A stretch of 64,000 nucleotides of DNA from Acidobacteriota bacterium (GTDB lineage: Bacteria > Acidobacteriota > UBA6911 > RPQK01 > JAJDTT01). The stretch's first letter is position 1, and every line of letters begins with the position of its first letter. Of the stretch, positions 6,310 to 32,482 are shown one piece after another. Under the pieces are notes generated by a model. It was given only the letters and a program-made list of their open reading frames with translations. It was not told the DNA's origin and ran no database searches. The stretch covers positions 864,001-928,000 of the forward strand of contig OZ253580.1 of the NCBI GenBank assembly GCA_965263035.1. The letters are read 5' to 3'. Both the position numbers and the translations under genes were made by a program.

Positions 6310-6313
6310 GAGG

Positions 6314-15078: not shown

Positions 15079-17643
15079 CTACTCGGCTGTCAAACCACTC
15101 TGGAGCTCATCGATCTTCTCGCCGATCAGCGCCGAGTAGTGACGCCAACTGGATTGATCCCCTCCGCTGGCGTCGGTCATCTGAAACTCGAAATTGTCGT
15201 TCATGAAGGTGACGGTTTCTGCAAGCCGATCGCGGGCCCGTTGAAGAGTCTCTTGGGAGACGTCAGAGCTTTTGGTTGCGCAATCCCGGTAGGCAACGTG
15301 CAGAGCCGACACGCTGTCGGCAAACCGATATCCAAGATTGAGGCGGGCGAACAGGTGCTCAAGATCTTCTTTGGCTTCTGGTCTCAAGTCCTTCGATTGC
15401 AAGGCAGTCTGAACCAGCCCCGACGCCTCTCGAGTTACGGCAGCTCGCAGGTTCCAGACCCTCGATAGTTTGTCATGCAGCACCGCGCCGGTAATCTCAG
15501 TGGTCTCCCCCGAGGCCGCCAGGGCCATCCTCACCAATCGCCGGTCGACTTCGACAAGGTCCGGCCTCCAGGTGCGTGAAGCCCGTGCAGAATTATAGGC
15601 AAGTGTGTGCATGGGGTAGATTCGCCGGCTAGCCCAATGGGGCGTGGTTTCATTCACCCTTTTCTTTTCGGTTACAAACTCGCGCTGGACTCGGTAAAGC
15701 CGGTTATACCGATACATGAATGCGCCCGCCCGTTCGCCATAGATCTTCCTGCAAGCCTGGCCCAGAAAACCGTTTTCGCCGAAGATCTCCGCCGGCTCAT
15801 CCAGATTGAAGGTTCCGCGCATATAATTTTCCCGCGACTCACTGTGCGTCGTAGCGGGAATGAATATTCCGTGAGCTCGAGTATTCCAACTGTAAGCTGC
15901 GTTGAGCAATTGCATCGGTTCCTGCGCAAATGAGCCGGAACTGTTTTCGATGGTCGTTGCCCCCTCAAACATCACATTGGTCAATGGCGAAGTCACAAAT
16001 GGGTAGTCATTGTAGGTAAAATCCGCGCCTTGAAAGACGAGAAAGTAAGTACCGATCTCCAGGTCGTGTCTATCGAACCGGGATTGGAGTGCCGGCACCC
16101 ACCTGTCCCGCGTCTCTTCAAGCGGCCAGATTTCCCGAAATCCGATTTGTACCTCAGGTACCTGGTAAGTCAATTGCTTGCCGACGTTTGTCCACAGTGC
16201 CAATAGATTGTTCCAATCTTCGTGCGCCTCCGGGACCGTTTTTATGCTGTACAGCTCCGACTCCCCTGTTCCATAGGTCACGTAACCGGGAGAAATCAGC
16301 CCCACAAAGCAGTCTCTCTTGGCATCATAGCCGGTCTCCTCGTTCCGGACGCTGAAGACCGCGTCCAGCAGCGCGTTGAAGCCGTGAGCCAATGCGCCTG
16401 CCCCTCCGTCAGGCGCCTTCAAGTCGTCATTCGGCCATTTCTTGCGGCAACGATCACAGCGGCGATTCTTCCATTCCGGCGCCGCGTCCCGGTAGTTGTC
16501 CACGTCTTCGTTGTGAATATAGAGACCGCCGGGCTCCAGGGCGCGAACATACGCCGCAAGCTCCTCCGCCTTCAATCCGTTGAGCGGTTCGTTGCTCCGG
16601 CACGTACCAAGACCGCGGGTGAAATCCGCAGGCAGGCGCCCGAAATATTGCTCGTCCTCGTAAGGATGTCCGAGGCAACTATAAATCTCACCATCCGGAT
16701 AGGATTCCCGGTTAAAAAAGATCCTTCCCTGATAGGAGGGCGCCCCTCCTTCGCTGGTTCCACCAAAAAACTGGTACGTACCTAACGCGTACCCGGCGCC
16801 ATAACCCCCGTGGAAAAGGCGAATTCCCCGTTGTCTCGCGTACTTTGCCAGTTCCCTGATCAAGGAGTTGTACCCGGGGGCCCGGTCGAGCGCCCAACCA
16901 AAGCCCTCGAAACGAACCGCGTTTATCTTGTAGAGAAGACAAAAATCGAGTTTTCTTTTCGCTCGTGCGAGGTATTTCTCGCGGCCGTCGCCGTAATCGT
17001 ATGCCCATCGGTTGATCTCATTGTTGAGCAGCCAATCAGAGGCGACCCGGTATTTGAATGAGGGGAAATCCCGAATATGGGCCGTCGTGATCCTGATCTC
17101 CTCTTCCCGCCGATTGATGAGCTGGATCAGCGTCGTGGCAGCATAGAGGAGGCCCTGACCGCCGGCTCCCACCAGAAAAATTCCATTGCCTTGGGTACGG
17201 ATCACGTAATTTTGTTCGAGGTTCCGGGGGTCCTCGAGGACCTGACGGTCCGCCTCGTCCAGCAGCGGGAGATCGGGCCGTTTATCGTAGTTCACCAGAA
17301 AAATCGTGGCCTGCGCCTTTTCCGGCACAGGCCCAGGAAGCTGAGCCACCTCCGCGATGTCAGACACAGCTCCCAACTCTTGGAGCCGGTTGAGGATGAT
17401 TCGTTGGGCAAGAACCTCCTTGAATGTGGGAGCTGTGGAAGGAACGATCACCAGGGCCGCCGCTCGATTCGGCACCAGAATGTCACGTGTCTGAAACGAA
17501 ACAAACTGGGGATCGGGAATAATAAAAGGACCTGCGACGGGCTGTTGGCGGCACGCCGGCTGGGTCGCGAGCACCCCAACGACGACGACGGACAAGGCTG
17601 CCGAGAACACTTTCTTGCCGACGCGCCGCATTCTGAATCTCAT
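15079..17643 (-). CDS. GH20 zincin-like N-terminal domain protein with unassigned catalytic domain, paralog P1 (possible lipoprotein)
   Basis: IIPDPQ..EQNYVI..GLLYAATTLIQL..IRDFPSFKYR N-domain; family motifs RWAYDYGDG, GTCRSN, YIHNED, CDRC..WPNDD, QEP..NAAYSWN. Confidence 0.8.
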   Translation of the reverse strand: MRFRMRRVGKKVFSAALSVVVVGVLATQPACRQQPVAGPFIIPDPQFVSFQTRDILVPNRAAALVIVPSTAPTFKEVLAQRIILNRLQELGAVSDIAEVAQLPGPVPEKAQATIFLVNYDKRPDLPLLDEADRQVLEDPRNLEQNYVIRTQGNGIFLVGAGGQGLLYAATTLIQLINRREEEIRITTAHIRDFPSFKYRVASDWLLNNEINRWAYDYGDGREKYLARAKRKLDFCLLYKINAVRFEGFGWALDRAPGYNSLIRELAKYARQRGIRLFHGGYGAGYALGTYQFFGGTSEGGAPSYQGRIFFNRESYPDGEIYSCLGHPYEDEQYFGRLPADFTRGLGTCRSNEPLNGLKAEELAAYVRALEPGGLYIHNEDVDNYRDAAPEWKNRRCDRCRKKWPNDDLKAPDGGAGALAHGFNALLDAVFSVRNEETGYDAKRDCFVGLISPGYVTYGTGESELYSIKTVPEAHEDWNNLLALWTNVGKQLTYQVPEVQIGFREIWPLEETRDRWVPALQSRFDRHDLEIGTYFLVFQGADFTYNDYPFVTSPLTNVMFEGATTIENSSGSFAQEPMQLLNAAYSWNTRAHGIFIPATTHSESRENYMRGTFNLDEPAEIFGENGFLGQACRKIYGERAGAFMYRYNRLYRVQREFVTEKKRVNETTPHWASRRIYPMHTLAYNSARASRTWRPDLVEVDRRLVRMALAASGETTEITGAVLHDKLSRVWNLRAAVTREASGLVQTALQSKDLRPEAKEDLEHLFARLNLGYRFADSVSALHVAYRDCATKSSDVSQETLQRARDRLAETVTFMNDNFEFQMTDASGGDQSSWRHYSALIGEKIDELQSGLTAE

Positions 17644-17645
17644 CG

Positions 17646-20024
17646 TCAGTTGCCGGACGAAATGACTTTCCGAATTCGCTTCAATGCCGCAAGAGAGCTT
17701 CCCACTTCACCTCCGGAGGGATGGAGTGTCTCAGTCCCAAACTGGTTGCGAACGAACACTTCGAGGCGCTCGCTCTGGACCCGTATCAACTCCCTTTGGA
17801 CCTCTTTTGCCTTGCCAGGCGTCATAATGAAATATGAGTGCAGGTTGGAAATAAGGTCTGCAAACCTCACTCCGAGCTGTACAGTCGACAACAGGTGCTC
17901 CAAGTCTGCCCTCGAATCCTCGTAGGGGCCAGTCACTCTGAGAGCGTTTTCCAGGAGCCTTTCTCCCTGCCGCGTGACTCGTTCCCACTTCCTCCAGCGA
18001 GATACGAGGCGCGAATGAAGATCGTCTACCGAAAGTTGGTGTTCCTTCATGAACTGCACTAGACGAACGTGTTCAATCTGTCGGCCCCAAGTCCTTCTAT
18101 CCACTGCAAGATTCCGCCACATGGCCGTGAGTGGATAGAGCCTGGGCCACATTCTCGGCGGCGTCTCATCGGCGGAGGCTTCCTCAAAGAGGGTGTTGAA
18201 ACGCACCATCGAGGGTGCCGCTTTCTCACCGTAGAGGCGGATGCAAGCCCGCTCGAGCAATCCTCCCTGTCCAAAGATCTCCTCCGGCCAAACTCGATTG
18301 TGTTGAAGGTCCAGCCGGATCGTCATCGCCGTCTCGTAGGACTTGGGGTCCCTGTAAAACCCAGTGGACTGAACGTTCCAACTGTATTCGGCGTCGATCC
18401 ACTGGAGCGGTTCCTGATTGAACCCGTTCCCGCCGTCATAGATGGTGCCGGCTCCCAAAAACGCGGCGTTCAAAGCCGGAGAGGAGACAACGGGATAGTC
18501 GTTGTAAAAATAGTTTGCACCACTACAGAAGAACATGAACATTTTGAATGGCCGGTCCGCCCTTTCCATCGCTTGGTTATAGTCGTCGACAAATCTCCTG
18601 GCCGTATCCTGCTGCGGAAAGATCTCGCGGAATCCGATCTGAATGTTTCTTGATGCCGGCAACAAACGCGCAGTCTCTTCCCATAGTTCAACAACATTCT
18701 CCCAATCCGCCGGAGATCGGGAGTCCGTTATGTAGACCGGGGAAATTGGGACGACTATACAGTCGCGCGATGCATCGTAACCGGTGTCGGGATTCTTGAC
18801 GCTGAAGACGGCTTCGATCAGCTCGCGGTATCCATGGGCCAGTCCGCCAGCTCCGCCATCCGGAGCCTTCAGGTCGTCGTTCGGCCAGCGGGCGCGGCAA
18901 CGGTCACATCGCTGCAGCCAGGAGCCCTGCGTGCCCTTGAATCCCCCAAAATCCTCGAAATGAATATAGAGCCCTCCAGGTTCTGTTTTCGCCACATAGT
19001 TTCGTAACTCTTCAGCTTTTAGCCGATTGAGGTCACTATTGGCCCGGCAGCTACCAGTGGTTCGAGGATTCATCCCTCCTTTTCTCGTCCTGGGAAATCC
19101 CATACATTCATAAACCTTCCCTTCGGGATAAGATTCCCGATTCAGGAAAAGCTTACCCAGATAAGGCGCTTCTTCGTAAAGAGGACCGCCCTGGTAGCTC
19201 ATGCCATAGCTTGCGCCGTACCCGCCGGTGACCAAATGGATTCCCCGCTGACGGGCATACTGGTTCAGTTCCTGCATCAGCGCCGGGAATTCGGGGAACA
19301 GATCCGTGCCCCAGCCATATCCGTGAAACAGGACCATGTTGATTTTCTGTCGCAGGCAGAGGTCGAGCTTTCGTTTGATTCGTTTCGAATAGGCCTCGAT
19401 CCCGTCACCCCAGTCATAGCTCCAACGATCGATTTCAACGTTCATCAACCAGTCGGCAGCCAGCCTGTATTCGAAATCGGGATGGTCCCTGATCTGACAA
19501 CCTTCAATTTGGATTTCACCGGCCGCGCCTTTGATCAACTGCGTCAGAGACACGGCTGCGTAGAGCACACCCTGGCCTCCGGAACCAATCAAGTAAATGC
19601 TTCGATTGGCTGGATCGACCCAGAGCACATATTCTTGGCCGGTTGCGCTTGGGGAGCTCAAAAGCTCGCGGTCACTGAAACTCAATACCTCACGCCGGTC
19701 CGAGTCACCTGGGCGTGTCCAGTCGGCATAGGACGCAAGCAGGACCTTCAAATCACCGCCTGATTGTTGTTCCAACAAGCCGTAACGGTGCGGTGTGATC
19801 TCCACTTCCGCGTCCCGTAGGGCCTCGTCGATCAAGCCGACGGCGATTTCCAGCTTTTCGGACGGCGCATCGGGCAAAAGGTAGTCGACCGTAATTTCCC
19901 CACTGAGGGAGATAGCGCCATGCGTCCGCTGAAAATCTTGAGGCGTCGGCAAAACGCCTGAATCTTCTCCGTAAAGGACGATCGTGGGGGTAAACAGGAA
20001 CAGAATGAGAACGACTTGCCTCAT
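17646..20024 (-). CDS. GH20 zincin-like N-terminal domain protein, paralog P2
   Basis: Start reassigned to ATG 20024 (GGAGG RBS; MRQVVLILFLF signal peptide); same motif set (RWSYDWGDG, GSCRAN, YIHFED, CDRC..WPNDD, AEYSWN). Confidence 0.8.
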   Translation of the reverse strand: MRQVVLILFLFTPTIVLYGEDSGVLPTPQDFQRTHGAISLSGEITVDYLLPDAPSEKLEIAVGLIDEALRDAEVEITPHRYGLLEQQSGGDLKVLLASYADWTRPGDSDRREVLSFSDRELLSSPSATGQEYVLWVDPANRSIYLIGSGGQGVLYAAVSLTQLIKGAAGEIQIEGCQIRDHPDFEYRLAADWLMNVEIDRWSYDWGDGIEAYSKRIKRKLDLCLRQKINMVLFHGYGWGTDLFPEFPALMQELNQYARQRGIHLVTGGYGASYGMSYQGGPLYEEAPYLGKLFLNRESYPEGKVYECMGFPRTRKGGMNPRTTGSCRANSDLNRLKAEELRNYVAKTEPGGLYIHFEDFGGFKGTQGSWLQRCDRCRARWPNDDLKAPDGGAGGLAHGYRELIEAVFSVKNPDTGYDASRDCIVVPISPVYITDSRSPADWENVVELWEETARLLPASRNIQIGFREIFPQQDTARRFVDDYNQAMERADRPFKMFMFFCSGANYFYNDYPVVSSPALNAAFLGAGTIYDGGNGFNQEPLQWIDAEYSWNVQSTGFYRDPKSYETAMTIRLDLQHNRVWPEEIFGQGGLLERACIRLYGEKAAPSMVRFNTLFEEASADETPPRMWPRLYPLTAMWRNLAVDRRTWGRQIEHVRLVQFMKEHQLSVDDLHSRLVSRWRKWERVTRQGERLLENALRVTGPYEDSRADLEHLLSTVQLGVRFADLISNLHSYFIMTPGKAKEVQRELIRVQSERLEVFVRNQFGTETLHPSGGEVGSSLAALKRIRKVISSGN

Positions 20025-20077
20025 CGCAATGCCTCCATCTGATTCGTTTTTCCGGGGCATTGGCAGAAATCGAGGAA

Positions 20078-20134
20078 CTGCCCCACCAACGAGATTTCCC
20101 ACCAAGATAGACTGGGGCCCAAGGGAAGTCCACT
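20078..20134 (-). promoter_or_regulatory. Shared promoter/operator motif, copy A (TGGACT-N17-TATCTT)
   Basis: Reverse complement AGTGGACTTCCCTTGGGCCCCAGTCTATCTTGGTGGGAAATCTCGTTGGTGGGGCAG; upstream of P2-P1-TPR-CRTAC1. Confidence 0.7.
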
Positions 20135-20350: not shown

Positions 20351-20356
20351 ATCACG

Positions 20357-21469
20357 GTGACAATTAAGTCTTGCGTTTGCAAACTCTTGCAACTAGGGAT
20401 CGTCTTCCCCGCCATACTCGTCGGGAACTTATCCGCTACGGACGTACGCGTAGATGCCCTGGCCAACGAGGTGCAGGACAAAGGGTGGATCATTTACAGC
20501 GCCCGCACGGAGAGCGGCGATTGGGACCTTTACATGAGCCGTCCGGACGGCAGTCAGCGACTCAATCTGACAAATTCACCTGATCGGCACGAAATGGGAG
20601 CACGGTTCTCCCCAGATGGGAAAAAACTGCTCTACCGCCGGCTGGCCGTGGGCTCGACCTTTCACCATCTCAACTGGGGCCTTCAAGGTTCTCTCGTCAT
20701 GGCTCATTCCGATGGGAGCAACGCGGTTGAGTTGGGCGGCCGAGGTGACTACCCGTGGGCCTCGTGGAGTCCGGACGGAAAGAAGATCGCCTGCTTGTAC
20801 AAGGATGGGATCAGGATCCATGACGTCGAGACCGGATCTGTGATGAGCAAGATGCCGCGCCAGGGCATCTACCAACAACTGTTCTGGTCCCCAGACGGCA
20901 CCATGGTGTGCGGCCCGGCAAATCGACGAGGAGATGCCTGGGGCGTAGTGCAAATTGAGATCAATTCGGGGACGCTACACTCGATCAGTGGTCCAAGTTG
21001 TTGCACCGGTGACTGGTTTCCTGATTCTGGGCGTCTAATCTATTCTCACCGTCCTCCCAATCAAGAAGTTATGGACGGGGGTGGAATGGCTCACCGATCC
21101 GGTCAAAAGCTCGAACATGGGTGGACCCAACTCTGGATGGCTGACAAGACCGGGCAAAACCGAAGATTGGTCTACGGAGAGGATGGGCGTCATGTCTACG
21201 GTGGCTTGGTTTCGCCCGACGGGAACTACGTTCTCTTTACGCGATCCCCTGAAGAAGACCTCAAGGTGATGAGGTCACAAACAGATCAGACAGGCGTGCG
21301 TCGACAAGGCGCCGCTATGGCGCTGATGCGTTTGAGTGACGCTCCGACCATCGGTGGCGAAAGCAGAGCCTTGCGAAAACTGTACCCAGCCACCAAGGAT
21401 GGACCTGTCTTGCATCTGCCCGAATCCTGGGAGCCCCATTGGACCTATTCTGAAGTTAGACGGAAGTGA
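20357..21469 (+). CDS. TolB-like / PD40 beta-propeller protein, secreted
   Basis: Signal peptide; FSPDGKK, WSPDGKK, WSPDG, WFPDS and VSPDG repeats. Confidence 0.8.
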   Translation: MTIKSCVCKLLQLGIVFPAILVGNLSATDVRVDALANEVQDKGWIIYSARTESGDWDLYMSRPDGSQRLNLTNSPDRHEMGARFSPDGKKLLYRRLAVGSTFHHLNWGLQGSLVMAHSDGSNAVELGGRGDYPWASWSPDGKKIACLYKDGIRIHDVETGSVMSKMPRQGIYQQLFWSPDGTMVCGPANRRGDAWGVVQIEINSGTLHSISGPSCCTGDWFPDSGRLIYSHRPPNQEVMDGGGMAHRSGQKLEHGWTQLWMADKTGQNRRLVYGEDGRHVYGGLVSPDGNYVLFTRSPEEDLKVMRSQTDQTGVRRQGAAMALMRLSDAPTIGGESRALRKLYPATKDGPVLHLPESWEPHWTYSEVRRK

Positions 21470-21951
21470 GACCGTTAATAGCGCTTCCCTCCGGTGGACT
21501 TTCCTTCAGGTCCGGTCTCCTCCTGATGGCGCTGTCATTGGCTGCGTGCACCGGACCTCAACGATGTTCCGGAATCGATGCTGAAATCACCACCGCGGGA
21601 AGTGTGGAGATTACCGCCGAACTCTTGGAAATTCCCGGCAAGTTCCCGTCCAACGATCTCTACGACTATGCCTACATCCTGAAATACCAAATCCGAGCAG
21701 TCCATCGCGGGCAGGTCAGTTCCAAGAACATTCTGGTCGCCCACTACAATCCGCTGAAACCGCGTTCCGAGGCTGAGAATGAGTTCTCGGGTAAAGTGGG
21801 AGGCACCGTACGACGATTCAAGGAGGGAGACCTGCATCGCCTCGCATTGGAGGAGCCACTCGATGACCACTATATGGGGGGTGTGATCGACAAGTTCCAG
21901 GAAGTCGGTACTCGCTACTGGTCGGTCTGGGCCAACCTCGTGATCGAATAG
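21466..21951 (+). CDS. Hypothetical lipoprotein
   Basis: Lipobox LAAC; GTGA overlap with the upstream gene; directly abuts the MBOAT gene. Confidence 0.7.
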   Translation: MRPLIALPSGGLSFRSGLLLMALSLAACTGPQRCSGIDAEITTAGSVEITAELLEIPGKFPSNDLYDYAYILKYQIRAVHRGQVSSKNILVAHYNPLKPRSEAENEFSGKVGGTVRRFKEGDLHRLALEEPLDDHYMGGVIDKFQEVGTRYWSVWANLVIE

Positions 21952-23355
21952 TTGGTTTTCACTTCTCATATCTTTGTTTTCTATTTCTTGCCTCTCGTCC
22001 TATTCAGCTACTGGCTGATACCGCCCCGGTTCCGCAACCTCTTTCTGATCTTCGTCAGTTATCTGTTCTACGGATGGTGGAAGCCGTGGTTCGTGGTGTT
22101 GATGCTCGCATCGACCATCGTGGACTTTCTGTGCGGCAAGACCATCTCGAACCCGGCCATCTCGGAACGGGGAAAAACCGCGGCGCTGGTGTGTTCGATC
22201 ACCGCCAACCTGGGGCTACTGGGGTTTTTCAAGTACTACATGTTCGCCGGCGAGAATTTGAACTACCTGCTGAATCTGGTTGGATCCGAGACCTTTTCAA
22301 TCCTCCATATCACGCTTCCGATCGGCATTTCTTTCTACACCTTCCAATCCATGAGCTACACGATCGACGTCTACCGAGGTCGTGCGCCAGCAGTCCGGTC
22401 GTTTACCGATCTCGCGTGCTTCGTTAGTCTCTTCCCACAACTAATTGCCGGGCCGATCGTACGCTACCGCACGATTGCCGCCCAACTGGTGCGGCGGACT
22501 CACAACTCGGAGAGGCTCGCTTCCGGGGCCTCCCTTTTCATTCTCGGGTTCTCCAAAAAGATACTGTTGGCAAATCCGATCGGCGCCATTGCCGATGCTG
22601 TGTTCCTGGCCGAATCTGCGGGAGCTTTGGAAGCCTGGTTCGGCGTCACAGCCTACGCTTTCCAGATCTACTTCGACTTCTCAGGCTACTCAGACATGGC
22701 TCTCGGCCTGGGACGCATCTTGGGCTTTGACTTCCCCAAGAATTTTGCCTCTCCCTATCGCGCCGAAAGCATTACCGAGTTCTGGAGACGGTGGCATATC
22801 TCGCTCTCTACGTTCCTGCGAGATTACCTGTACATCCCACTGGGTGGAAATCGGAAGGGTCCCTCCCGCACCTATGTCAATCTAATGATCGTCATGCTGG
22901 TCGGGGGGCTTTGGCATGGGGCCGGCTGGACCTTTCTGGTGTGGGGAGCCTACCACGGAGCCCTGCTGGGTCTGGAGAGATTAAACGGCAAGGGCAGTTT
23001 CTATGCTTTCCTGCCTGTTCCCGCCAGAAAGGGCGCTACTTTTGTTCTCGTTCTTATCTCGTGGGTCCTCTTTCGCGCCTCAAACCTTGGCCAGGCGGGA
23101 GATTATCTCGGCTTCATGTTCGGTTTCCATTCCCAACAGGTTTCAACGGCGCTACTTTCGGCCCAGATCTTCACTCCGGCCAATGTTCTCATCTTAGCCG
23201 TCGCAGGCGTGTTCGCCTTCGGCCCCGCCGAGGCCGAACCGTGGACCCGCCGTCTTTCCTGGCCAAAAATCATGGCCATACTTTCCCTTTTTCTGGGTTC
23301 CCTGATGGTGATGTCCGCCCAGACCTTCAATCCTTTCCTCTATTTTCAATTTTGA
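21952..23355 (+). CDS. algI: MBOAT family O-acyltransferase (AlgI/PatA/DltB-like)
   Basis: LPIGISFYTFQ, FPQLIAGPI, QIYFDFSGYSDMA, FWRRWHISLS, GLWHG (catalytic His), C-terminal FLYFQF. Confidence 0.9.
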   Translation: MVFTSHIFVFYFLPLVLFSYWLIPPRFRNLFLIFVSYLFYGWWKPWFVVLMLASTIVDFLCGKTISNPAISERGKTAALVCSITANLGLLGFFKYYMFAGENLNYLLNLVGSETFSILHITLPIGISFYTFQSMSYTIDVYRGRAPAVRSFTDLACFVSLFPQLIAGPIVRYRTIAAQLVRRTHNSERLASGASLFILGFSKKILLANPIGAIADAVFLAESAGALEAWFGVTAYAFQIYFDFSGYSDMALGLGRILGFDFPKNFASPYRAESITEFWRRWHISLSTFLRDYLYIPLGGNRKGPSRTYVNLMIVMLVGGLWHGAGWTFLVWGAYHGALLGLERLNGKGSFYAFLPVPARKGATFVLVLISWVLFRASNLGQAGDYLGFMFGFHSQQVSTALLSAQIFTPANVLILAVAGVFAFGPAEAEPWTRRLSWPKIMAILSLFLGSLMVMSAQTFNPFLYFQF

Positions 23356-23362
23356 GACGTCC

Positions 23363-24523
23363 ATGGTGAAACTGAAATATCGATTTCTGGTGACGACATT
23401 TTTCGCCGTGATCGGCTTTGTTCCCGTATCTCAGGTCGTGTTCGAGTTGACACAGGGTGATCGACCTGTCGTCGCGGAATTGGTGTTGAACCTGCCTACC
23501 GAGCAGCACCTCAGAGAGGTCGAGAGCGAAATCGAGGAAACCTCCTGGTTTATCCGAAACTCCCGCTCCTTGGTGCAGCGCATCTGGTTCCGACTGTCGG
23601 GGCAACCCGGCGAAAATATCTTGGTCGGGCTCGATGGCTGGCTGTTCTATCTTCCCACAGTCCGTTTCCTGGTCGAACCCTTCCCACCCGGCAAGGATCG
23701 GCAATCCCACTTCCATGATCCCTTGGCCGCCATCACCGACTTTCATCGGCAGTTGGCCGGCCGCGGAATCCAACTGTTGGTGGTACCGGTCCCCGGCAAA
23801 GCCAGCATCTATCCCGAACGGGTCAGCTCCCGTGCCGATCCCGAGAAAATCGCGGATTCCTCGCATACGCTGGAGTTCATCTCCCAATTGAACAACGCGG
23901 GGATACCAACGATCGATCTCTTTGAGATATTCCACCAGGAGCGTCGGCGGGACCGTTCAACCAACGTAGAGCACTTCTATCTCTCGCAAGACACGCATTG
24001 GACGCCGGAGGGTGCCGGATTGGCCGCTCAAGCCGTTGCGCAGGGAGTCTTGAGAGAGGGTTGGGTGACCGCAGGTTCGAAAGAATACGCTCAAAAGCCG
24101 TTTACAGTGGCACGCCGCAGCGACATTCTCAGAATGGCGCGTTCACCATCGATCGAAAGGCTCTTTCCTCCCCAGGAAGTCACCTGCCAGCAGGTGTTCG
24201 AATCGGACACCGGAAACCTCTACCAGGACGATCTCGATTCCCCGGTGCTCGTCCTCGGGGACAGCTTCTTGAGGATCTACCAGACTGACAATCCCAAAGC
24301 GGCGGGCTTTCTGGCGCATCTCGCCAAGAACCTGAGACGTCCGGTCGCTTCGATCGTCAACGACGGAGGCGCGTCCACGTTGGTCCGACAGCAGTTGAGC
24401 AGGAACCCCGACCTGCTGGAGGGCAAGAAACTAGTCGTTTGGGAATTTGTGGAGAGGGACTTGCGCTTCGGAATGGAGGGCTGGCAGAAGATTCCAATTC
24501 CTTCCACTTCGAGTCGCCGATGA
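23363..24523 (+). CDS. AlgX/AlgJ-like SGNH O-acetyltransferase
   Basis: N-terminal TM, G.DGWLFY, VP.KASIYPE, DTHW (Asp/His), GDSF (Ser), WEFVER. Confidence 0.85.
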   Translation: MVKLKYRFLVTTFFAVIGFVPVSQVVFELTQGDRPVVAELVLNLPTEQHLREVESEIEETSWFIRNSRSLVQRIWFRLSGQPGENILVGLDGWLFYLPTVRFLVEPFPPGKDRQSHFHDPLAAITDFHRQLAGRGIQLLVVPVPGKASIYPERVSSRADPEKIADSSHTLEFISQLNNAGIPTIDLFEIFHQERRRDRSTNVEHFYLSQDTHWTPEGAGLAAQAVAQGVLREGWVTAGSKEYAQKPFTVARRSDILRMARSPSIERLFPPQEVTCQQVFESDTGNLYQDDLDSPVLVLGDSFLRIYQTDNPKAAGFLAHLAKNLRRPVASIVNDGGASTLVRQQLSRNPDLLEGKKLVVWEFVERDLRFGMEGWQKIPIPSTSSRR

Positions 24524-24590: not shown

Positions 24591-27080
24591 TCAGGGACTC
24601 ATCTCGCCCAGCTTATCCCGCATCACATCGATGTAGAACTGCCAGGATGACTGGTCTCCGCCACTTGGGTCTGTCATTTCGAAAGTAAAGTTCTCGTCCT
24701 TGAAGCTCTCCACATCAGCAACGAGGCGTTTCGACTCTTCCAGAGACTTGGTGACGGAATCGATGTCGGCTTCATGTTGGAATTGGTAGACACGAAAAAG
24801 CGCGGCTACAGCGGCCGAGAACCGGTACCCGAGTTCAAGGCGCTTGGAAAGGTGAATCAAGTCTTCTTTATTACCGGCCGTCAACTCGGCCACCTGAAGT
24901 GCGTTCGCGACATCCGCCGTCGCTTCTCGGGTCACTTCCGCACGCAGTCTCCAGATTCGCTCCAGTTTGCGATGGAGATCCTGAGTTGAGATGTCCGGAT
25001 CGCCACCAACGTTCCGCGCGAAATCAGCCAGAGTTTTCCCGATCTGGGTATCGGCCAGATTCTTCTCCCAGGTTCGTTGTGCATTGGCCAGGTTGTAGAA
25101 CATGGTGTTCATGGGGTAGATCTTGGACAGAGTCCAGCGGCCGTGGCCCTCCTGGTAATAGCCGGGAGAAGCGAATTCCCGCTGCTCTCGAGAGCGCCGG
25201 AAGTACTGATACATGTATCGACCCGCTTCGTCGCCATAGAGCTTGCGGCAGGCTTCACCCAGGAAACCTGATTCCGAAAAGATCTCTTCCGGCTCAACCA
25301 GATTCATCTGGTACTCCCGGAGACGACGCTCGGTTTCGACCTGTATGGTCGGCCGCAGGAAGAATTCCCGGGCCTTGAGATTCCACGCATACTCGGCATT
25401 CAGAAGTTGCTGCGGTTCCTGTGCGAAGGTGCCTGAAAAATTGTACAGCGTGGTGGCCCCTGCAAAACTGGCATTGCCAACCGGGGCTGCCATAAAGGTG
25501 GAATCGGAATTGTAGTAGTTGGCTCCCTCCACTACGAAAACATAACTGCCAAAATTCAAGTCCTGCTCACGCAGTTTCTCGTGCAGACGAAGAGGCCAAG
25601 TGTCCTCCGGCCCTTGGAACGGAAACATCTCACGAAACCCGCCTTGAACCCTGGGCCCCTGATGCCTGAGCTGCTTGAAGATGTTCACCCAGAGTTCCTG
25701 TACGTTGTTCCAATCCTGCCGCGCCGCTTCAATGGAGTCGTGATGGCGGGGTGTCTTCCCCACGCCGAAGGCCATATAGGAGGGTGAGATCAGGACTACG
25801 ATGCAGTCTCTGGAGGCATCATAGCCCGATTCCTCATTCTTGACCGAATAGATGGCGTCCAACAGCGTGTTGTACCCATGGGCAAGAGCTCCCGCCCCTC
25901 CGTCCACCTCCTTCAGATCGTCGTTGGGCCAGCGTTTCCGGCAGCCTTCATCGCGAACCTCCCATTCGACCTGAGTGTCCGGATAGTTGCTGAGATCCTC
26001 GTGGTGGATGTAAAGGGCACCGGGCTCAACGGCCCTCACAAAAGCAGCAAGTTCCTCCTGTTTGAGCCGGTTCAACTCTTCATTGCTGCGACAGGTTCCC
26101 AGGGTTCGCGGCGGGAAACGCTCGTTCTCATGGGCCATGCCGATACATGAGTAGATCTCCCCGTCCGGATAGGAACGGCGATTGTAAAAAAGTTTCCCAC
26201 GGTAGGCAGGGGTGTTGAAGAAGCCCTGATAGGTTCCCAACCCGTAACCAGCCCCATATCCCCCGAAGAACAAGTGGATACCGCGCTCTCTGGCATACCG
26301 ATTGATGGACCGCATCAGAGCAGCGTACTCCGGTTCCAGAGTCCACCCGAAACCGTCAAAGGTCACTGCGTTGATCTTGTATTTCAGGCAGAAGTCGAGT
26401 TTTCTCTGGATCCGCCGGAGGAAGTTGGCCTGACCGTCTCCATAGTCATATCCCCAGCGATTGCCTTCCACGTTCTGCAACCAGTCCGCCGCCTCGCGGT
26501 ATTTGATATCCGGAAAGTCGCGGATGTGAACTCTTGCCAATTCCAAGCGGCCGGAACGGGATTCCAACAACTGAATCAGGGTAGCCGCCGCATAGAGGGC
26601 TCCTTGATCGGTGCTGCCCACCAGAAACGCGTCTCGTTCTGCGATTCGAATGACGTAACTCTGTTCCGTTTCTGCAGCATCGCGGAGAACGCTGATGTCT
26701 TCGCTGTCCAGATTCACCGCGTCCGACAGGGCAACTTGGTCGTCTCGCCAAACTTGGAAACGAATGGTCAAAGCGGCATCTTCAGCCGTGTTCGCGGATT
26801 GCCCAGCAGATGCCAGGCCGTCCGTACCTGACAATTCAGCAAGCCGTTCCCGTACGAGTTGAGCAGCCAACTGCAGTTTGGGGGATGGGTTATCAGGTAG
26901 CACGAAGGCGACGCTGCCTGGGCGTTCAGGGATCAGAACGGGATCGCCGGCCACAACCATCGATTGTGGGTCCGGGATCACATAGGGCAGCCGAGCCGAA
27001 ACGTCGTCGGAAGACCGACAGCTCTGGGCCAGCATCAGCCCCATTCCCACGGCCACTGCGAGAAATATTCTCTGGGACAT
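24591..27080 (-). CDS. GH20 zincin-like N-terminal domain protein, paralog P3 (lipoprotein)
   Basis: Lipobox-like LAQSC; RWGYDYGDG, GTCRSN, YIHHED, DEGC..WPNDD, NAEYAWN, DPSGGDQSSW. Confidence 0.8.
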   Translation of the reverse strand: MSQRIFLAVAVGMGLMLAQSCRSSDDVSARLPYVIPDPQSMVVAGDPVLIPERPGSVAFVLPDNPSPKLQLAAQLVRERLAELSGTDGLASAGQSANTAEDAALTIRFQVWRDDQVALSDAVNLDSEDISVLRDAAETEQSYVIRIAERDAFLVGSTDQGALYAAATLIQLLESRSGRLELARVHIRDFPDIKYREAADWLQNVEGNRWGYDYGDGQANFLRRIQRKLDFCLKYKINAVTFDGFGWTLEPEYAALMRSINRYARERGIHLFFGGYGAGYGLGTYQGFFNTPAYRGKLFYNRRSYPDGEIYSCIGMAHENERFPPRTLGTCRSNEELNRLKQEELAAFVRAVEPGALYIHHEDLSNYPDTQVEWEVRDEGCRKRWPNDDLKEVDGGAGALAHGYNTLLDAIYSVKNEESGYDASRDCIVVLISPSYMAFGVGKTPRHHDSIEAARQDWNNVQELWVNIFKQLRHQGPRVQGGFREMFPFQGPEDTWPLRLHEKLREQDLNFGSYVFVVEGANYYNSDSTFMAAPVGNASFAGATTLYNFSGTFAQEPQQLLNAEYAWNLKAREFFLRPTIQVETERRLREYQMNLVEPEEIFSESGFLGEACRKLYGDEAGRYMYQYFRRSREQREFASPGYYQEGHGRWTLSKIYPMNTMFYNLANAQRTWEKNLADTQIGKTLADFARNVGGDPDISTQDLHRKLERIWRLRAEVTREATADVANALQVAELTAGNKEDLIHLSKRLELGYRFSAAVAALFRVYQFQHEADIDSVTKSLEESKRLVADVESFKDENFTFEMTDPSGGDQSSWQFYIDVMRDKLGEMSP

Positions 27081-27142
27081 CGCCTGATCTCCTCCTATAG
27101 GAGCAGACCGCCACAGCGGTCACCGAGGATCTGCTCAGGTGT

Positions 27143-29644
27143 CTAATCCTGGTCCATTGTGTCCGTCGAAAGCTCCTGCAGGCGCGCCTTGATTTGGTGC
27201 AGGCCCTCCAGCCAGGTCGCCTGGTCTCCGCCCAGTGGATCGACGGTGTCAAACGTAAAGTCCCGATCCAGGAGCGATTCCAACGTATCCAGTTCGTTCT
27301 TGGTCCGCGCGACCAGGGGTGCCACTACGTCCCGACCCTTTTTGTCCAGCGAAGCCGCCAGCGCCTCATGGTAGCGATTCAAAACCCTGGCGAATCCCCG
27401 TCCCACTCGCAGACACTTGCGCAGGTACTCGACATCGGGGCGGGCATCGGCGCGGAGATCGGAGGTCCGGAGCACTTCGGACGTAAGCGCGACCGCCTCG
27501 GCGTTGACTTCGTCGTAAGCCTGCCAGAGTTCTGCCCACCGTCTCTGCCAATCCACGGAGTCGATACCCAAAAGCGTCGTCAGTTCCTTGGCGCGCGCCG
27601 ACAATTTCGGGCCTCCGGATTCCTGGTCCATGCTCAGAATTCGCCAGAGGATCGAGAGTGGGTATAGTCTCTCAGCCGCCACCGGGACCAGAAGATCGAT
27701 TTCACTTCCGTAGACCTCATCCACCGTCCGGTCGTAGTGGGTGGCCATGATCGTGCGACCGATCCCTTCCGGCACTTCAACCCGGCGCTGAGTCCGGTAG
27801 AAGTTGAAAATTCGGTGCATTTTCCCGCCCGCATCGTCCCCGTAGAGCTGTCGGAAGGCCTCGGAGAGAAACCCGGCGGGACCGGTGATCTCCGGTCCCA
27901 GATCCCGATTGTTCATCAACGCCTTCCAAGTCGAACGGGTCTCCTCATTGCGGATCGGAATGACATGGCCGGGGGCATCGACGTTCCAACTGTACTCCGC
28001 ATTGAAGAGCTGAAGCGGCTCCTGGAAGACGGCCCCACTGAAGTTGTAGATCGCCTCAGCCCCCTTGAAGATCCCATTCATGGCAGCAGTCCCCGCAAAG
28101 GGATAGTTGAAGGAATCTCTTGAATAAAGATCAGCTCCGCCCAGAAAGAAGAGGAACGTGCGGGTGTTCAGGCCTTGGCTTCCCAACCTTTGGCGATAGG
28201 CATCGATCCACCGCACATCGGTTCCCTGCTGAGGGAAGACCTCCCGGAAGCCGATCTCAATGTTCTCGTCATGGGGAAGCAGCGACATCACGTTCGACCA
28301 GTAGATCAGGTGGTTTTCCCAGTCGGTGGGCAGGGTCGGAAACGGGTTGTATCCGGGACTGAGGAACATGACGGTACAGTCGCGGGCGGCATCATAACCC
28401 GAGTCGGCATTCTTGACGCTTCGTATGGCCCGCAGGAGTTCGTTGTAACCATGAGCCACGGCTCCGGCCCCGCCGTCTTTGGTGATGAGGCTGTCGTTGG
28501 GCCATTGCTTGCGGCAACGAAAACATCTCTTTTTCCAGGTTACCCAGAGTTCGTAGTTGGTCAGGTGATAGTCGAGGTTGGGATCACCGATTCCGCGGTC
28601 TTCATGGTGGATGTAAAGCGCTCCCGGCTCTATGGAGCGGACAAAGTCGGCCATCTCGGCGGCTTTGAGCCGATTCAGCGCCTGGTTCCCGCGACAGGTT
28701 CCCAAGATGCCACGCCCCGGACGGTTTTCTCCGAAGCAGGAGTAGATCGTTCCGTCCGGATATTGATCGCGGTTGTACCAGACCTTGCCGACATTGCGTT
28801 CGGGTCGGACGATACGGCCATAGTTGGCGCCGTACCCGGCAAACAGGAGCTTGATACCTCGCGCTCTGGCGTAGCCGTTCAACTCCCTCATCATTCTCGA
28901 GTAGCCGGGAAACTTCTCACGGTTCCACCCGTAGCCGTCGAAGAAAACCAGGTTGATCTTGTAGCGAAGACAGAAGTCGATTTTCCTCTTGAGGCGCTGG
29001 ACATAGGCCTCCTTGCCGTCACCCCAGTCATAGGCCCAGCGGTTGATTTCCGCCAACAGCAACCAATCGGCCGCGGCCCGATAGCGAAAATCGGGAAAAT
29101 CACGAATAGAGCCGTTCGGGACCAGAACCGCACTACCGGTCCGCCTCATGACCTGCCGGAGAGAAGCGGCAGCATAGAGAACGCCCTGGGCGCTTCCACC
29201 GACGAGCCAGACCTGTGGCTGGTTTCCCGGAACCACTTTGAGCACATACCCTTGTTCGGCCCTGGCAGGATCGGAAAGCAGCTCTCGATCGGCCGGCTCA
29301 AGGAAGGAATCGGCTTGCTTTCTCAAAATGCCGTTACGACTCCAGTCCACCAGGTGAATCCCACCCAGGACGGGCTGAGGTGCGGCGCCCGTCAGGAAAG
29401 TGGGCGGGGGAAAAACTGAAGGATCTTGGGAGCGGATCAGGTCAGCCGCCAGACGTTCTTTTGCCGAAGCTCCCTCTGCTAGAACCAGTCGAGTCGAGTC
29501 CGATCCTTTCTCAAACCGAACCGTCTGCTGGTCCCAAACCTGATGCTGGGGTGTGGGAATGATCCGGGGCGTTCCTTCCAAGGCTTGCCCGCTGATGACC
29601 AAGAGGATTGCAATGAGCAGTCCGGACGTACTCAATCGATACAT
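27143..29644 (-). CDS. GH20 zincin-like N-terminal domain protein, paralog P4
   Basis: Signal peptide; IIPTPQ; RWAYDWGDG, GTCRGN, YIHHED, CFRC..WPND, NAEYSWN, DPLGGD. Confidence 0.8.
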   Translation of the reverse strand: MYRLSTSGLLIAILLVISGQALEGTPRIIPTPQHQVWDQQTVRFEKGSDSTRLVLAEGASAKERLAADLIRSQDPSVFPPPTFLTGAAPQPVLGGIHLVDWSRNGILRKQADSFLEPADRELLSDPARAEQGYVLKVVPGNQPQVWLVGGSAQGVLYAAASLRQVMRRTGSAVLVPNGSIRDFPDFRYRAAADWLLLAEINRWAYDWGDGKEAYVQRLKRKIDFCLRYKINLVFFDGYGWNREKFPGYSRMMRELNGYARARGIKLLFAGYGANYGRIVRPERNVGKVWYNRDQYPDGTIYSCFGENRPGRGILGTCRGNQALNRLKAAEMADFVRSIEPGALYIHHEDRGIGDPNLDYHLTNYELWVTWKKRCFRCRKQWPNDSLITKDGGAGAVAHGYNELLRAIRSVKNADSGYDAARDCTVMFLSPGYNPFPTLPTDWENHLIYWSNVMSLLPHDENIEIGFREVFPQQGTDVRWIDAYRQRLGSQGLNTRTFLFFLGGADLYSRDSFNYPFAGTAAMNGIFKGAEAIYNFSGAVFQEPLQLFNAEYSWNVDAPGHVIPIRNEETRSTWKALMNNRDLGPEITGPAGFLSEAFRQLYGDDAGGKMHRIFNFYRTQRRVEVPEGIGRTIMATHYDRTVDEVYGSEIDLLVPVAAERLYPLSILWRILSMDQESGGPKLSARAKELTTLLGIDSVDWQRRWAELWQAYDEVNAEAVALTSEVLRTSDLRADARPDVEYLRKCLRVGRGFARVLNRYHEALAASLDKKGRDVVAPLVARTKNELDTLESLLDRDFTFDTVDPLGGDQATWLEGLHQIKARLQELSTDTMDQD

Positions 29645-29666
29645 GGCTGCACCGTGTTCCTTTCCT

Positions 29667-32120
29667 CTAACGAAATTCGACGCCTCGACGGGGCATCGAT
29701 TGAGCCCACGCCAACAGGTTACTTCTTAGTTCCTCGAGGGTCAGCGCCCAACTCGACAGGTCGCCGCCTTTCGGATCCACCGTGTCAAACGAAAAGGAGT
29801 CTTCGAGGTAAGTCCAAACCCGCTCGATCCCGGTGAGGATCTCCACGATCTCCCCTTGTCCATCCGGCCCTGTCACCCGATTGCCGATCGCGTCATGGTA
29901 GGACGCCAGGAGACCTCCAAACCGGATCCCCACTTCCAGGCAGCGCTCCAGGTGGCGCAGATCCGGCACGGCTTCCTCCCTCACGTCGCCGACGCCGAGG
30001 GCTTCGGTCACCATTCGCTTTCCCTTTCGGTTGACCTCGGCAAGTTGCCTCCAAAAGGCTGCTATCCCTCGTTGCAAGAGAGCGTACTCCTGGGCTGAAA
30101 AGGTGCGCACACGCCCCCTGATTCGGATCTCCGTGGCGGCATCCTCCGTGTCTTCCAGCGCGCGGCTGCCCGCCGAACCCGATCCCCAATAGGCGCTGTC
30201 GGCTTGAAAGAGCCTCCAGAAGACAGCGTTCGGATAGACCTTCCTGGGGTAAAAGGCGGGAATCTCATTGTCCCCAAGCGGTTCGAAGAAGTTGAAGAAA
30301 CGCGCCATGAGCTTGCCCGTCTTCGCCCCGTAGATTCGAACGCACGCCTCTTCGAACAGTCCCCCGGAACCGTACACCTCCTCGGGAAGTTCCTGGTTCG
30401 ACCGGAGCCGGTTCCATGCAGCCAGAGCCGTCTCGAAGGTATTCGGCCGTTGGTAGCCAGGGGCGTCGACATTCCAACTGAATTCGGCGTTGACGACCTG
30501 CAACGGTTCCTGGTGGACTCCTCCACTGAAATTGTAGATCGCTTCGGCGCCTTCAAAAATTCCGTTTATGACCGGGGTCGCCGCATACGGATAGTTGAAG
30601 ACGCCACCGGAATATTGGTCAGCGCCCCCCAAAAAGAACATGAAGGTTTTATCGCTCAACCCTCGGGAGGCCATTCTCTCCTTGAACGCTGGAATCCACG
30701 GTTCACCCGTTCCCTGACGAGGAAAAATCTCTCGAAAGCCGATCTCGACATTATCTTGCGACGGCAGAAGCGATACCGCGTTGGCCCAGAATTCGAGGGT
30801 CTTTTCCCAGTTGAGATCTTCATCGGTGTCGACGCCACCCAGGCCGGACCGCCCGGAATCTATCCCATAGGGCGGCGAGATCAGAATAATGGTGCAATCG
30901 CGCGCTGCATCGTAGCCGGTATCCGGGTTGCGCACTCGTTGGATACTCTCGACGATCTGACCGTATCGATAGGCAAGGGCTCCGGCACCACCGTCCAGAG
31001 CGGCGAAATCGTCGTTGGGCCATCGGCCCTTGCACCCCGGGTCGCGTGCCTTCCAACGTTCCACGTTGCTCTTGTAGTGTCCCGTGTCCTCGTGATGGAT
31101 GTACAAAGCCCCGGGTTCTACCGTGCGAACCAACTCGGTGATCGCTCCGACGATCTCCCTGTTTTGCGCCTCGTTCGAGCGACAGGTGCCCAAAGTGGGG
31201 TGGAGGGGTGTTCGAAGTTCGCCGTAACACGCGTATAGAGGCCCGTCAGGGTAACTTTTCCGGTTCAGAAATATTTTCCCGATGTTGTGCTCGGGCTCGA
31301 CTTTCAGGGGGTCGAAGTTGGCGCCAAATCCAGCATAGACAAGCTTGATCCCACGGTCACGGGCATAGGAGTTCAGTTCCCGCATCATCGCACCGTAGCC
31401 GGGTACTTTTTCGGCAGTCCAACCAAAGCCGTCAAAGAAAACCATATTGATCTTGAAGCGCAGACAGAAATCGAGCTTGCGCTTGATCCGCTCCATGTAG
31501 GCTCTCCTGCCATCTCCCCAGTCGTAACCCCAGCGGTTGAGCTCGGCACGCATGAGCCAGTCCGCTGCGGCCCGGTACTTGAAGTCCGGGTAATCCCTCA
31601 CTTCCACTTCAGGGATGACGAGCTCCCCGTCCTCCACTGACCACAGTTGCACCAGAGTGGTCACCGCGTAGAGCGCACCCAGCGGAGCGGACCCGAGCAG
31701 AAGTATCCGTTGGTGTTTAGGATCCGTCTTGATCACATAAGCCTGGCCGGTATCTTGGGGATCATTCAGCACCTTACGATCGGCGTCGGAAAGGAGTCTC
31801 AGTAACTCATAGGACCGGTTTTCCTTTTGGCTCCAGTCCAATAGCAGTATGCACGGCGTTCCGGAACACTCCGTCGCCATCTGTAGCTGAACTCCACTGA
31901 CGCTGGCCTCCTGGCGAAGAAACTGCTCTGCAAGCTCAAGCATTCGGCTACGCGACGGGCGGGCCACTACCCAACCGCCGGAGGCTCCTGCACCGCTCTT
32001 AATTGCCCCGGACCCGGCTTCCAGGACCTGAGGCATGGGAATCACGCGGGGCGTGGCCCAAAGCGCAGGGACCAGGAAGAAAAATGAGAGGACGAACGAC
32101 GTTCTTCTGAGGAAACACAT
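29667..32120 (-). CDS. GH20 zincin-like N-terminal domain protein, paralog P5
   Basis: Start reassigned to ATG 32120 (AGGAG upstream; MCFLRRTSFVLSFFFLVPALWA); RWGYDWGDG, GTCRSN, YIHHED, DPGC..WPNDD, NAEFSWN, DPKGGD. Confidence 0.8.
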   Translation of the reverse strand: MCFLRRTSFVLSFFFLVPALWATPRVIPMPQVLEAGSGAIKSGAGASGGWVVARPSRSRMLELAEQFLRQEASVSGVQLQMATECSGTPCILLLDWSQKENRSYELLRLLSDADRKVLNDPQDTGQAYVIKTDPKHQRILLLGSAPLGALYAVTTLVQLWSVEDGELVIPEVEVRDYPDFKYRAAADWLMRAELNRWGYDWGDGRRAYMERIKRKLDFCLRFKINMVFFDGFGWTAEKVPGYGAMMRELNSYARDRGIKLVYAGFGANFDPLKVEPEHNIGKIFLNRKSYPDGPLYACYGELRTPLHPTLGTCRSNEAQNREIVGAITELVRTVEPGALYIHHEDTGHYKSNVERWKARDPGCKGRWPNDDFAALDGGAGALAYRYGQIVESIQRVRNPDTGYDAARDCTIILISPPYGIDSGRSGLGGVDTDEDLNWEKTLEFWANAVSLLPSQDNVEIGFREIFPRQGTGEPWIPAFKERMASRGLSDKTFMFFLGGADQYSGGVFNYPYAATPVINGIFEGAEAIYNFSGGVHQEPLQVVNAEFSWNVDAPGYQRPNTFETALAAWNRLRSNQELPEEVYGSGGLFEEACVRIYGAKTGKLMARFFNFFEPLGDNEIPAFYPRKVYPNAVFWRLFQADSAYWGSGSAGSRALEDTEDAATEIRIRGRVRTFSAQEYALLQRGIAAFWRQLAEVNRKGKRMVTEALGVGDVREEAVPDLRHLERCLEVGIRFGGLLASYHDAIGNRVTGPDGQGEIVEILTGIERVWTYLEDSFSFDTVDPKGGDLSSWALTLEELRSNLLAWAQSMPRRGVEFR

Positions 32121-32465: not shown

Positions 32466-32482
32466 GTTATGGAGAAGAAGAG

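Follow-up and report, generated by a model that had tools for sequence, protein, structure and literature searches.

What do five related genes (P1–P5), arrayed on the minus strand of one stretch of a soil-type Acidobacteriota genome, encode? The stretch (contig OZ253580.1, positions 864,001 to 928,000; 64,000 nucleotides (nt), hereafter the window, whose own coordinates are used below) had been described in a sequence-only reading as carrying a five-member array of an unassigned glycoside hydrolase (GH)-like family, in which an HxED motif would supply an adjacent pair of catalytic acids. Our analysis of the sequences and of a predicted structure suggests that the five are old, separately conserved paralogs of an exported enzyme family, which is most likely a glycoside hydrolase family. 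As to their activity, we lean towards the view that P1–P5 are exported glycosidases of an unassigned family and distant sisters of DUF4838, which would act on amino-sugar glycans with D362 (P3 numbering, used throughout) as acid/base and E484 as second carboxylate, the copies differing in specificity.

P1 is an open reading frame (ORF) of 854 amino acids (aa) at 15079–17643, minus strand. It carries PF02838 at residues 39–192 and HxED at residues 377–380 (nt 16504–16515), and scores 1003 bits against the hidden Markov model (HMM) of the family. The longest ORF of P2 (17646–20180, minus strand; HxED at nt 18951–18962) has 844 aa, and its start is probably the ATG at 20024, which has GGAGG upstream. 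P3 (24591–27080, minus strand, 829 aa) is the copy used for modelling; its motif, H359-H-E361-D362, corresponds to nt 25995–26006. P4 (27143–29644, minus strand) encodes 833 aa with HxED at nt 28598–28609. P5 (29667–32309, minus strand; HxED at nt 31086–31097) is open as far as a GTG at 32309, giving 880 aa. For this gene the ATG at 32120, which was the end coordinate of the sequence-only reading, appears to be the likelier start: it gives a protein of 817 aa with a signal-like N-terminus and has AGGAGAAG upstream. Judged by eye, the likely start of each of the five proteins suggests a hydrophobic, signal-like N-terminal segment. The genes are separated by 2 nt (P1/P2), 62 nt (P3/P4) and 22 nt (P4/P5), and between P2 and P3 lies a 4410-nt block with four plus-strand genes.

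The five proteins, of about 790–855 aa, are 35–48% identical in pairwise comparison. Among the 20 sequence patterns that had been listed for them, 17 were found in all five proteins and in identical order, compared with a mean of 0.03 over 200 shuffles in a shuffled-sequence control. The array is therefore a real feature, far beyond chance expectation. EPG[AG]LYIHxED, WPND, DGGAG, GYDAxRDC, GFRExxP and QEP are present in every copy. The description of the motif list as near-invariant holds with this reservation: IPxPQ, IRDxPxFxYR and AxYxWN fail as written, each through single-residue deviations (LPTPQ in P2; an ending PDIKYR in P3 and an initial V in P5; F in place of Y in P5, respectively). 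The loops proposed to be variable, after GYGA and after HxED, are indeed visible in the alignment of the five proteins, P4 having a 10-residue insert after HxED.

To place these copies we fetched 54 related loci (designated by L numbers), one genome per species. The closest are from Acidobacteriota metagenome-assembled genomes (MAGs), whose proteins are 86–91% identical to P3 (L001–L003). In a FastTree phylogeny of 77 copies, each of P1–P5 falls into a separate clade with its own orthologs: L014_9965 and L007_2971 for P1; L002_19666, L003_19816 and L014_7518 for P2; L001_7377, L022_7520, L002_7333 and L003_7281 for P4; and L001_4889, L002_4910, L003_4719 and L022_4990 for P5. The P1 and P3 clades are sisters, P4 and P5 lie within one larger clade and P2 is placed elsewhere; the long branches of L044, L045, L046, L049 and L051 in this tree are unreliable. 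Orthologs of each paralog are about 85–93% identical in related genomes, and gene order is kept in L001–L003, L014 and L022. Considering the separate clades and the kept gene order, the array is old and maintained rather than recently duplicated. A recent tandem duplication or an assembly artefact was ruled out by the 35–48% identity among the paralogs together with the much closer orthologs.

Relatives of the catalytic part

We searched Pfam (2025 copy), NCBIfam (June 2026) and PDB (April 2026). In Pfam, PF02838 (Glyco_hydro_20b, GH20b below) matches the N-terminus of all five proteins (E 2e-9 to 5e-8) and was detected in 55 of 55 family members at E ≤ 10; beyond this N-terminal domain, Pfam gave nothing for P1–P5. 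A profile of the five proteins compared with all PDB sequences matched GH84 and GH20 chains over residues ~120–197, within the N-domain, and had no match outside the N-domain at E ≤ 10. In NCBIfam, P1–P5 showed an N-domain match to a GlcNAcase model, which at 25.7 bits or less against a cut-off of 1000 does not indicate membership.

Characterised catalytic domains were likewise missing from the Pfam matches. The GH20 catalytic-domain model matches none of the 55 members even at E ≤ 10; the HxGGDE motif is absent and the site reads IHxED. The GH84 catalytic (NAGidase) model had no match in the 55 members either, the D-D pair being absent and the pair here being E-D. PF16126 (DUF4838) had no match in P1–P5 at E ≤ 0.01 and matched one of the 55 members at E 0.14. 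For the GH138, GH67 and GH115 alpha-uronidases, neither the PDB profile nor Pfam gave a sequence match, and the matches were at the level of fold only. GH97 (5 of 55 members at E ≤ 10, best E 0.013) and AP_endonuc_2 (2 of 55 at the same threshold) were taken as noise.

Thus, Pfam, NCBIfam and PDB hold no model or close structure for the catalytic part of this family. As the sequence-only reading had predicted, only the N-domain matches known families in these three libraries, and no full-length match to a characterised family was found in them. In our literature search, the portions of the papers available contained no description of the family, the matches being unrelated work on GH20, GH163 and GH185. 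Where the source databases name family members at all, they call them 'hypothetical protein' or 'glycoside hydrolase family 20 zincin-like fold domain-containing protein'. The nearest clusters in a protein atlas (0.94–0.95) are unnamed and come from Planctomycetota and Lentisphaerota. Two further atlas results were kept as leads only: NAGLU/GH89 barrel clusters (0.91–0.93), GH89 not being among the Foldseek matches listed, and GHL6, which is carried by 12% of one cluster.

An AlphaFold2 model of P3, built from a 55-sequence alignment, reached a predicted local distance difference test (pLDDT) score of 89.2 and a predicted template modelling (pTM) score of 0.92; the barrel modelled alone reached a pLDDT of 90.2. 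The model contains an N-terminal hydrophobic helix, a GH20b domain (residues ~40–188), eight beta/alpha units that make up a (beta/alpha)8 barrel, and, over residues ~580–829, a bundle of helices at the C-terminus. The barrel strands are 194–199, 238–242, 269–275, 355–359, 427–431, 475–483, 510–517 and 544–548. In this model H359 closes strand 4 with E361-D362 directly after it, and R483-E484 close strand 6. Both the TIM barrel and the position of ED at the end of strand beta-4, which had been predicted from the sequence, are thus borne out at the level of a model.

Foldseek searches of PDB with whole P3 gave GH138 (6hze, E 1.2e-16, 866 aligned columns), GH84 entries (E ~1e-16, template modelling (TM) score up to 0.59 normalised by target) and GH20 (6yhh, E 1.5e-15), with 11–13% identity over the matches. 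With the barrel alone, GH67, GH20, GH84 and GH138 were found at E 8e-7 to 1e-5 (TM ~0.45, 9–14% identity), the top match being GH67 1mqr at E 8.1e-7. The best 50 Foldseek matches are all glycosidases. GH20 and GH84, which had been suggested as fold relatives, are therefore among the nearest solved structures, at about 9–14% identity. On the evidence of the model, no solved structure is close and no single family among GH138, GH84, GH20 and GH67 stands out.

The predicted layout of P1–P5 (GH20b N-domain, barrel, helical C-terminal bundle) is that of GH84, GH20, GH67, GH138 and DUF4838. GH84 enzymes such as BtGH84 and CpNagJ share a GH20b-like N-domain, a barrel and a helical bundle, and their N-domains match in sequence (E 1e-6 to 7e-5). 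However, identity to them is 9–13% with no sequence match in the barrel, the D-D pair is lacking, and a cysteine (Cys) cluster and the R-E that follows strand 6 set the P1–P5 family apart. GH20 enzymes share PF02838, a barrel fold match at E 8e-7 to 1e-5 and a His two to three residues ahead of the acid after strand 4, but differ in having HxGGDE. To our knowledge, GH20 has no helical C-terminal domain of the kind found in P1–P5. GH138 (BT0997-type alpha-galacturonidase) is the best match by whole-protein fold and the GH67 alpha-glucuronidases by barrel alone, whereas identity to both is 12–13%, the TM score is 0.39–0.44 and there is no sequence-level match, as compared by fold and sequence search only.

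No family proved closer in sequence than DUF4838, a comparison proposed earlier from the sequence. One DUF4838 protein is encoded in the window (7819–9624, plus strand; PF16126, E 7e-60), 5.5 kb from the array; alone, this protein gave an hhalign probability of 61%, which is too weak to rely on. Against a 7-sequence DUF4838 profile, the whole protein reached a probability of 95.8% (E 8e-9), and comparison of 214–232 family rows with 89 DUF4838 sequences gave E 1.2e-20 for the whole protein. With the 89-sequence profile, the barrel only (232 family sequences) reached 97.5% (E 7.7e-12) over P3 residues 222–415, and the N-domain only E 1.1e-14. In the barrel, the alignment pairs the KxN of strand 2, GG-Y-G of strand 3 with GG-H-T of DUF4838, C-R/S-S-N with CxSN, and CxxC with CxxC, and it places D362 on D315 of DUF4838, which is conserved in 89 of 89 sequences. 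R188, H250, D315 and Y375 are fully invariant in these 89 sequences, and the R, D and Y have aligned or positional counterparts in R195, D362 and Y435. By profile comparison, the P1–P5 family is a distant homolog of DUF4838 that lies outside its Pfam model.

The two families share an N-terminal zincin-like domain followed by a (beta/alpha)8 barrel and the Cys pattern CSN...CxxC, and their genes are often neighbours in the same genomes; the invariant Arg, Asp and Tyr that follow strands 1, 4 and 5 in each family probably correspond. They differ in the invariant His after strand 3 of DUF4838, which is Tyr in the P1–P5 family, and in H359, R483-E484, WPND and DGGAG, for which no counterpart was found in DUF4838; the long helical C-terminal domain of the P1–P5 family (~250 residues) is outside the alignment. 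According to one study, DUF4838 is the catalytic domain of CAZy families GH163 (founding member BT1035) and GH185 (founding member Sp_0475), and the members characterised are hexosaminidases (PMC10570127). The same study reports that D309 of Sp_0475 overlays the acid/base residue of GH84 and that D309A cuts kcat 7800-fold, that H227, Y436 and Q174 also matter, and that the enzyme is retaining, with inhibition by 6S-GlcNAc-thiazoline suggesting a substrate-assisted mechanism (PMC10570127).

Taken together, P1–P5 represent a real, apparently unassigned, family-level relative of known glycosidases, as judged from profiles and model. The superfold and the general chemistry are of known kinds, whereas we found no description of the catalytic-domain family, of its set of residues or of its arrays in Pfam, NCBIfam, PDB and the literature searched.

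Conserved residues and the candidate active site

Conservation was counted over 203 relatives that span the barrel. H359, R195, Y435 and W566 are conserved in all 203, and D362, R483 and E484 in 202 each. E361, on the other hand, is present in 146 of 203, with I, L, M, V or A in most of the remaining 57. The motif thus reduces to HxxD as its universal part in these sequences, and the E is branch-specific. R331 is present in every one of the 146 rows with E361, while 55 of the 57 rows lacking E361 also lack R331 (39 of them have L) and two keep R. The median HMM score is 1025 for the E361-bearing rows versus 471 for the rest. Since the former are closest to the acidobacterial proteins, the E361-R331 combination may mark one branch, and it looks like a subfamily-specific Glu-Arg pair in which R331 lies in the loop after strand 3.

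Four positions in the loops after strands 3 and 4 are also well conserved: C312, C330 and C380 in 201 of 203 relatives each, and position 377, which is Cys in 183 and Asp in 16 (including P3). The pattern seems to fit a metal site better than disulfides, because Asp replaces one Cys while the other three stay.

These observations bear directly on the idea, put forward in the sequence-only reading, that HxED is an adjacent acid pair, with E361 and D362 cleaving N-acetylhexosaminides by a substrate-assisted route as do the D-E of GH20 and the D-D of GH84. Half of the idea stands: D362 is nearly universal and follows strand 4. The other half does not, E361 being restricted to part of the family and tracking R331. 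The motif is invariant in P1–P5 and its E is kept in most of the 203 relatives; it lies right after strand 4, in the same place as the GH20 and GH84 pairs, and the neighbouring genes fit amino sugars. The HxGG-then-DE arrangement of GH20 and the carboxylate pair of GH84 are described in PMC10570127. However, the 57 relatives with another residue at position 361 keep H359, D362 and E484, the strict dependence of E361 on R331 is as for a Glu-Arg pair and not a free catalytic acid, the order is E-D rather than D-E, and in DUF4838 only the Asp is conserved at the site matching E361-D362. We therefore consider a pair formed by E361 and D362 unlikely. A second universal carboxylate, E484, is found after strand 6 and is not adjacent to D362.

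In the mechanism that we favour, catalysis would take place on the C-terminal face of the predicted barrel. D362, which aligns with the invariant Asp of DUF4838, would be the general acid/base, assisted by the invariant H359, R195 (strand 1), Y435 (strand 5), R483-E484 (strand 6) and W566 (after strand 8). E484 would either polarise the 2-acetamido group, as in the substrate-assisted route, or act as a classical nucleophile. In the acidobacterial branch, E361, as a possible partner of R331, probably influences the form of the pocket or the choice of substrate. C312, C330, C377 (Cys or Asp) and C380 probably hold a structural metal.

Distribution and genomic neighbours

A profile search of 1.84 billion cluster representatives (50% identity) gave 958 sequences at E ≤ 1e-3, 391 at E ≤ 1e-10 and 174 at E ≤ 1e-30. 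Members are present in Acidobacteriota (Bryobacteraceae, Solibacteraceae, Terriglobia), Latescibacterota, Planctomycetota, Lentisphaerota, Verrucomicrobiota (Chthoniobacteraceae) and Armatimonadota (Armatimonadia), as well as on one contig labelled Acidimicrobiia. Arrays, often of two to five copies, recur among the related loci, with three tandem copies in L017, four in L030 and three to four in L032 and L037. On contigs from MAGs, some copies are broken up into two or three ORFs (L019 9103–11480, L039 9932–12395, L043 9644–12118 and L012 11703–14179), which may reflect frameshifts, pseudogenes or assembly errors. The copy on the Acidimicrobiia-labelled contig (L038) groups with those of L054 and L012, both from Acidobacteriota, and the genes around it (GFO, AP_endonuc_2, EamA, PTE and DgaE-like) match those of L054, which suggests that either the gene was transferred or the contig was mis-binned.

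Two genes on the opposite strand come next after P5 in the window. The first (32417–33430, plus strand) encodes a Php-like phosphotriesterase (PTE)-family protein (PF02126, E 1e-76; PRK09875, 226 bits, below the cut-off of 486). The second (33373–34623, plus strand) encodes a DgaE-family, SelA-related pyridoxal phosphate enzyme (PF03841), which scores 250 bits against the NCBIfam D-glucosaminate-6-phosphate ammonia-lyase model and 227 bits against TIGR01437, both below cut-offs. As called, the two genes overlap by 58 nt, and the pair recurs beside family members in many loci. The Php-like/DgaE-like pair presumably resembles the php/yhfS pairing in Escherichia coli. Upstream of P1 are found TPR, FG-GAP/ASPIC and EamA genes, the gene of a GFO/IDH/MocA oxidoreductase (9709–10680, minus strand; Pfam) and the DUF4838 gene. 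The four genes that split the array (20357–24523, plus strand) encode, by Pfam, a PD40 beta-propeller, a 161-aa ORF product without a Pfam match, an MBOAT protein (DltB/AlgI-like; NCBIfam DltB, 159 bits, below cut-off) and an AlgX-like SGNH protein. Their order is the same in L001–L003 and L008, and the PD40/MBOAT/SGNH block appears to have the make-up of a polysaccharide O-acylation module.

Among the 54 loci, 19 have PTE homologs (one of them from Planctomycetota and one from Verrucomicrobiota), 10 have DgaE-like homologs, 8 have GFO and 8 have EamA. A Pfam scan of 112 of the 121 neighbour ORFs of 30 loci, the nine left out being mostly short, added TonB-type receptors (L015, L017, L019, L030, L032), GntR regulators (L015, L030), AP_endonuc_2 barrels (L038, L045, L046, L054) and amidohydrolases (L012, L017), that of L017 reaching the cut-off of the 'amidohydrolase/deacetylase family' model. 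Other glycosidase-type genes were found in L010, L020, L027, L036, L050 and L053. DUF4838 genes flank family members in L018 (two copies), L019, L020, L030 and L053; these distant relatives are thus found together repeatedly. Some family members are fused to GFO/IDH/MocA with Oxidoreduct_C (P0207 being fused to GFO/IDH/MocA), to TPR with ThuA, to Peptidase_C26 or to PA14. To judge from these domain assignments, the neighbour set has the make-up of glycan-utilisation loci, and its DgaE-like, deacetylase and oxidoreductase components would point to amino sugars.

Several other features of the window were observed. TPR and FG-GAP/ASPIC-UnbV genes lie at 4585–7798, 11874–15058, 53252–54961 and 34613–36178 (all minus strand), as two full pairs and one lone copy of each. 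Such a pair adjoins a family member in L012, and lone FG-GAP genes occur in L027 and L039, with no TPR partner among the scanned ORFs. GWxTD-domain proteins are encoded near both window ends (2842–4551 and 61977–63623, both minus strand). At ~36000–46000 the guanine plus cytosine content rises from ~0.56 to 0.61–0.64; this stretch contains a BNR-repeat protein (36251–38359), argF, argH and argG (39166–43066) and a CofH/MqnC-type radical SAM gene. A 1044-aa protein with DUF7133, HEAT repeats and a C-terminal cytochrome c domain is encoded at 54956–58090 (plus strand).

Substrate class and significance

In the pathway that we propose around these glycosidases, complex glycans would be taken up through TonB-type receptors, and the amino-sugar units released from them would then be processed by the oxidoreductase, the Php-like hydrolase, a deacetylase-type amidohydrolase and the DgaE-like ammonia-lyase, the five copies differing in substrate or linkage. 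Residue roles, metal site, substrate class and downstream pathway are all inferred. 

A different substrate class should also be considered. P1–P5 might be alpha-uronidases like GH67, GH115 and GH138 that strip plant or microbial polysaccharides of their glucuronic or galacturonic acid side groups. This would agree with the top fold matches (6hze of GH138 for the whole protein and 1mqr of GH67 for the barrel), with pectin-type neighbours in L010 (PcRGLX-like, GH106-like and CE4), with an apiosidase-like gene next to an MR_MLE dehydratase in L036, and with the invariant R195 and R483, which could bind a carboxylate. On the other hand, the fold scores of GH84 and GH20 are practically equal to those of GH138 and GH67, and the 54 loci contain no recurrent set of uronate isomerases or dehydratases, PTE and DgaE-like genes recurring instead. 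In addition, the sole significant sequence link is to DUF4838, with hexosaminidases as its characterised members (PMC10570127). A uronidase activity is, in our judgement, improbable.

Least probable is a non-glycosidase barrel enzyme (an esterase, amidase or metal-dependent hydrolase using the Cys cluster and H359) or a non-catalytic glycan binder: no catalytic-domain model in Pfam or NCBIfam matches, the conserved His, Asp and Cys could form a metal centre, and amidohydrolases and PTE-family metal hydrolases occur among the neighbours, but the GH20b N-domain gave matches to N-domain models and chains of glycosidases only, the best 50 fold matches are all glycosidases, the family is homologous to DUF4838, strict invariance argues against a mere binder, and the Asp, Glu, Tyr and Trp kept invariant behind barrel strands are what an active site that binds sugar typically shows.

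Several points weigh against the reading of P1–P5 as DUF4838-related glycosidases of amino-sugar glycans. The nearest folds include alpha-uronidases (GH67, GH138) besides hexosaminidases, and fold alone gives no substrate. The placement of residues rests on the DSSP string and strand order of the AlphaFold2 model. The link to DUF4838 rests on the 89-sequence profile, because the barrel-only comparison of 55 family sequences with the 7-sequence profile was not significant (probability 6.7%), and the significant barrel alignment spans strands 2–4 only. Within it, the invariant H250 of DUF4838 aligns with a Tyr (Y275) in the P1–P5 family, and the equivalence of DUF4838 D315 with D309 of Sp_0475 is inferred from conservation and spacing, the two being unaligned. 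E361 and R331 may share the history of one clade, so that their covariation does not amount to many independent events. Similarly, L001–L003, L014 and L022 are too closely related to the window to be independent counts among the 54 loci, and the PTE and DgaE-like matches fall below the NCBIfam equivalog cut-offs.

Within the preferred glycosidase reading, a bolder proposal can be put forward tentatively. The family may be a new GH group at family level, absent so far from CAZy and derived from the DUF4838/GH20/GH84 stock, with its own catalytic set (Asp after strand 4, the Arg-Glu that follows strand 6, and a metal cluster of the type Cys3-(Cys/Asp)), and may have expanded in Acidobacteriota into arrays of specialised paralogs. 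These arrays would feed an undescribed oxidative amino-sugar route made up of a GFO-type oxidoreductase, a Php-like lactonase, a deacetylase and a DgaE-like ammonia-lyase.

Few soil bacteria are more abundant than Acidobacteriota, and a large part of their capacity to degrade glycans lacks annotation. Defining the activity of this family would add a missing enzyme class to models of carbon and nitrogen turnover, would give CAZy-type annotation a new model, and might assign a substrate to the widespread Php-like/DgaE-like gene pair. The set of Asp, Arg-Glu and Cys cluster would extend what is known of how the GH20/GH84/GH163/GH185 stock varies its catalytic residues. If the oxidative amino-sugar route is true, it could explain part of the turnover of microbial cell walls and exopolysaccharides in soil.

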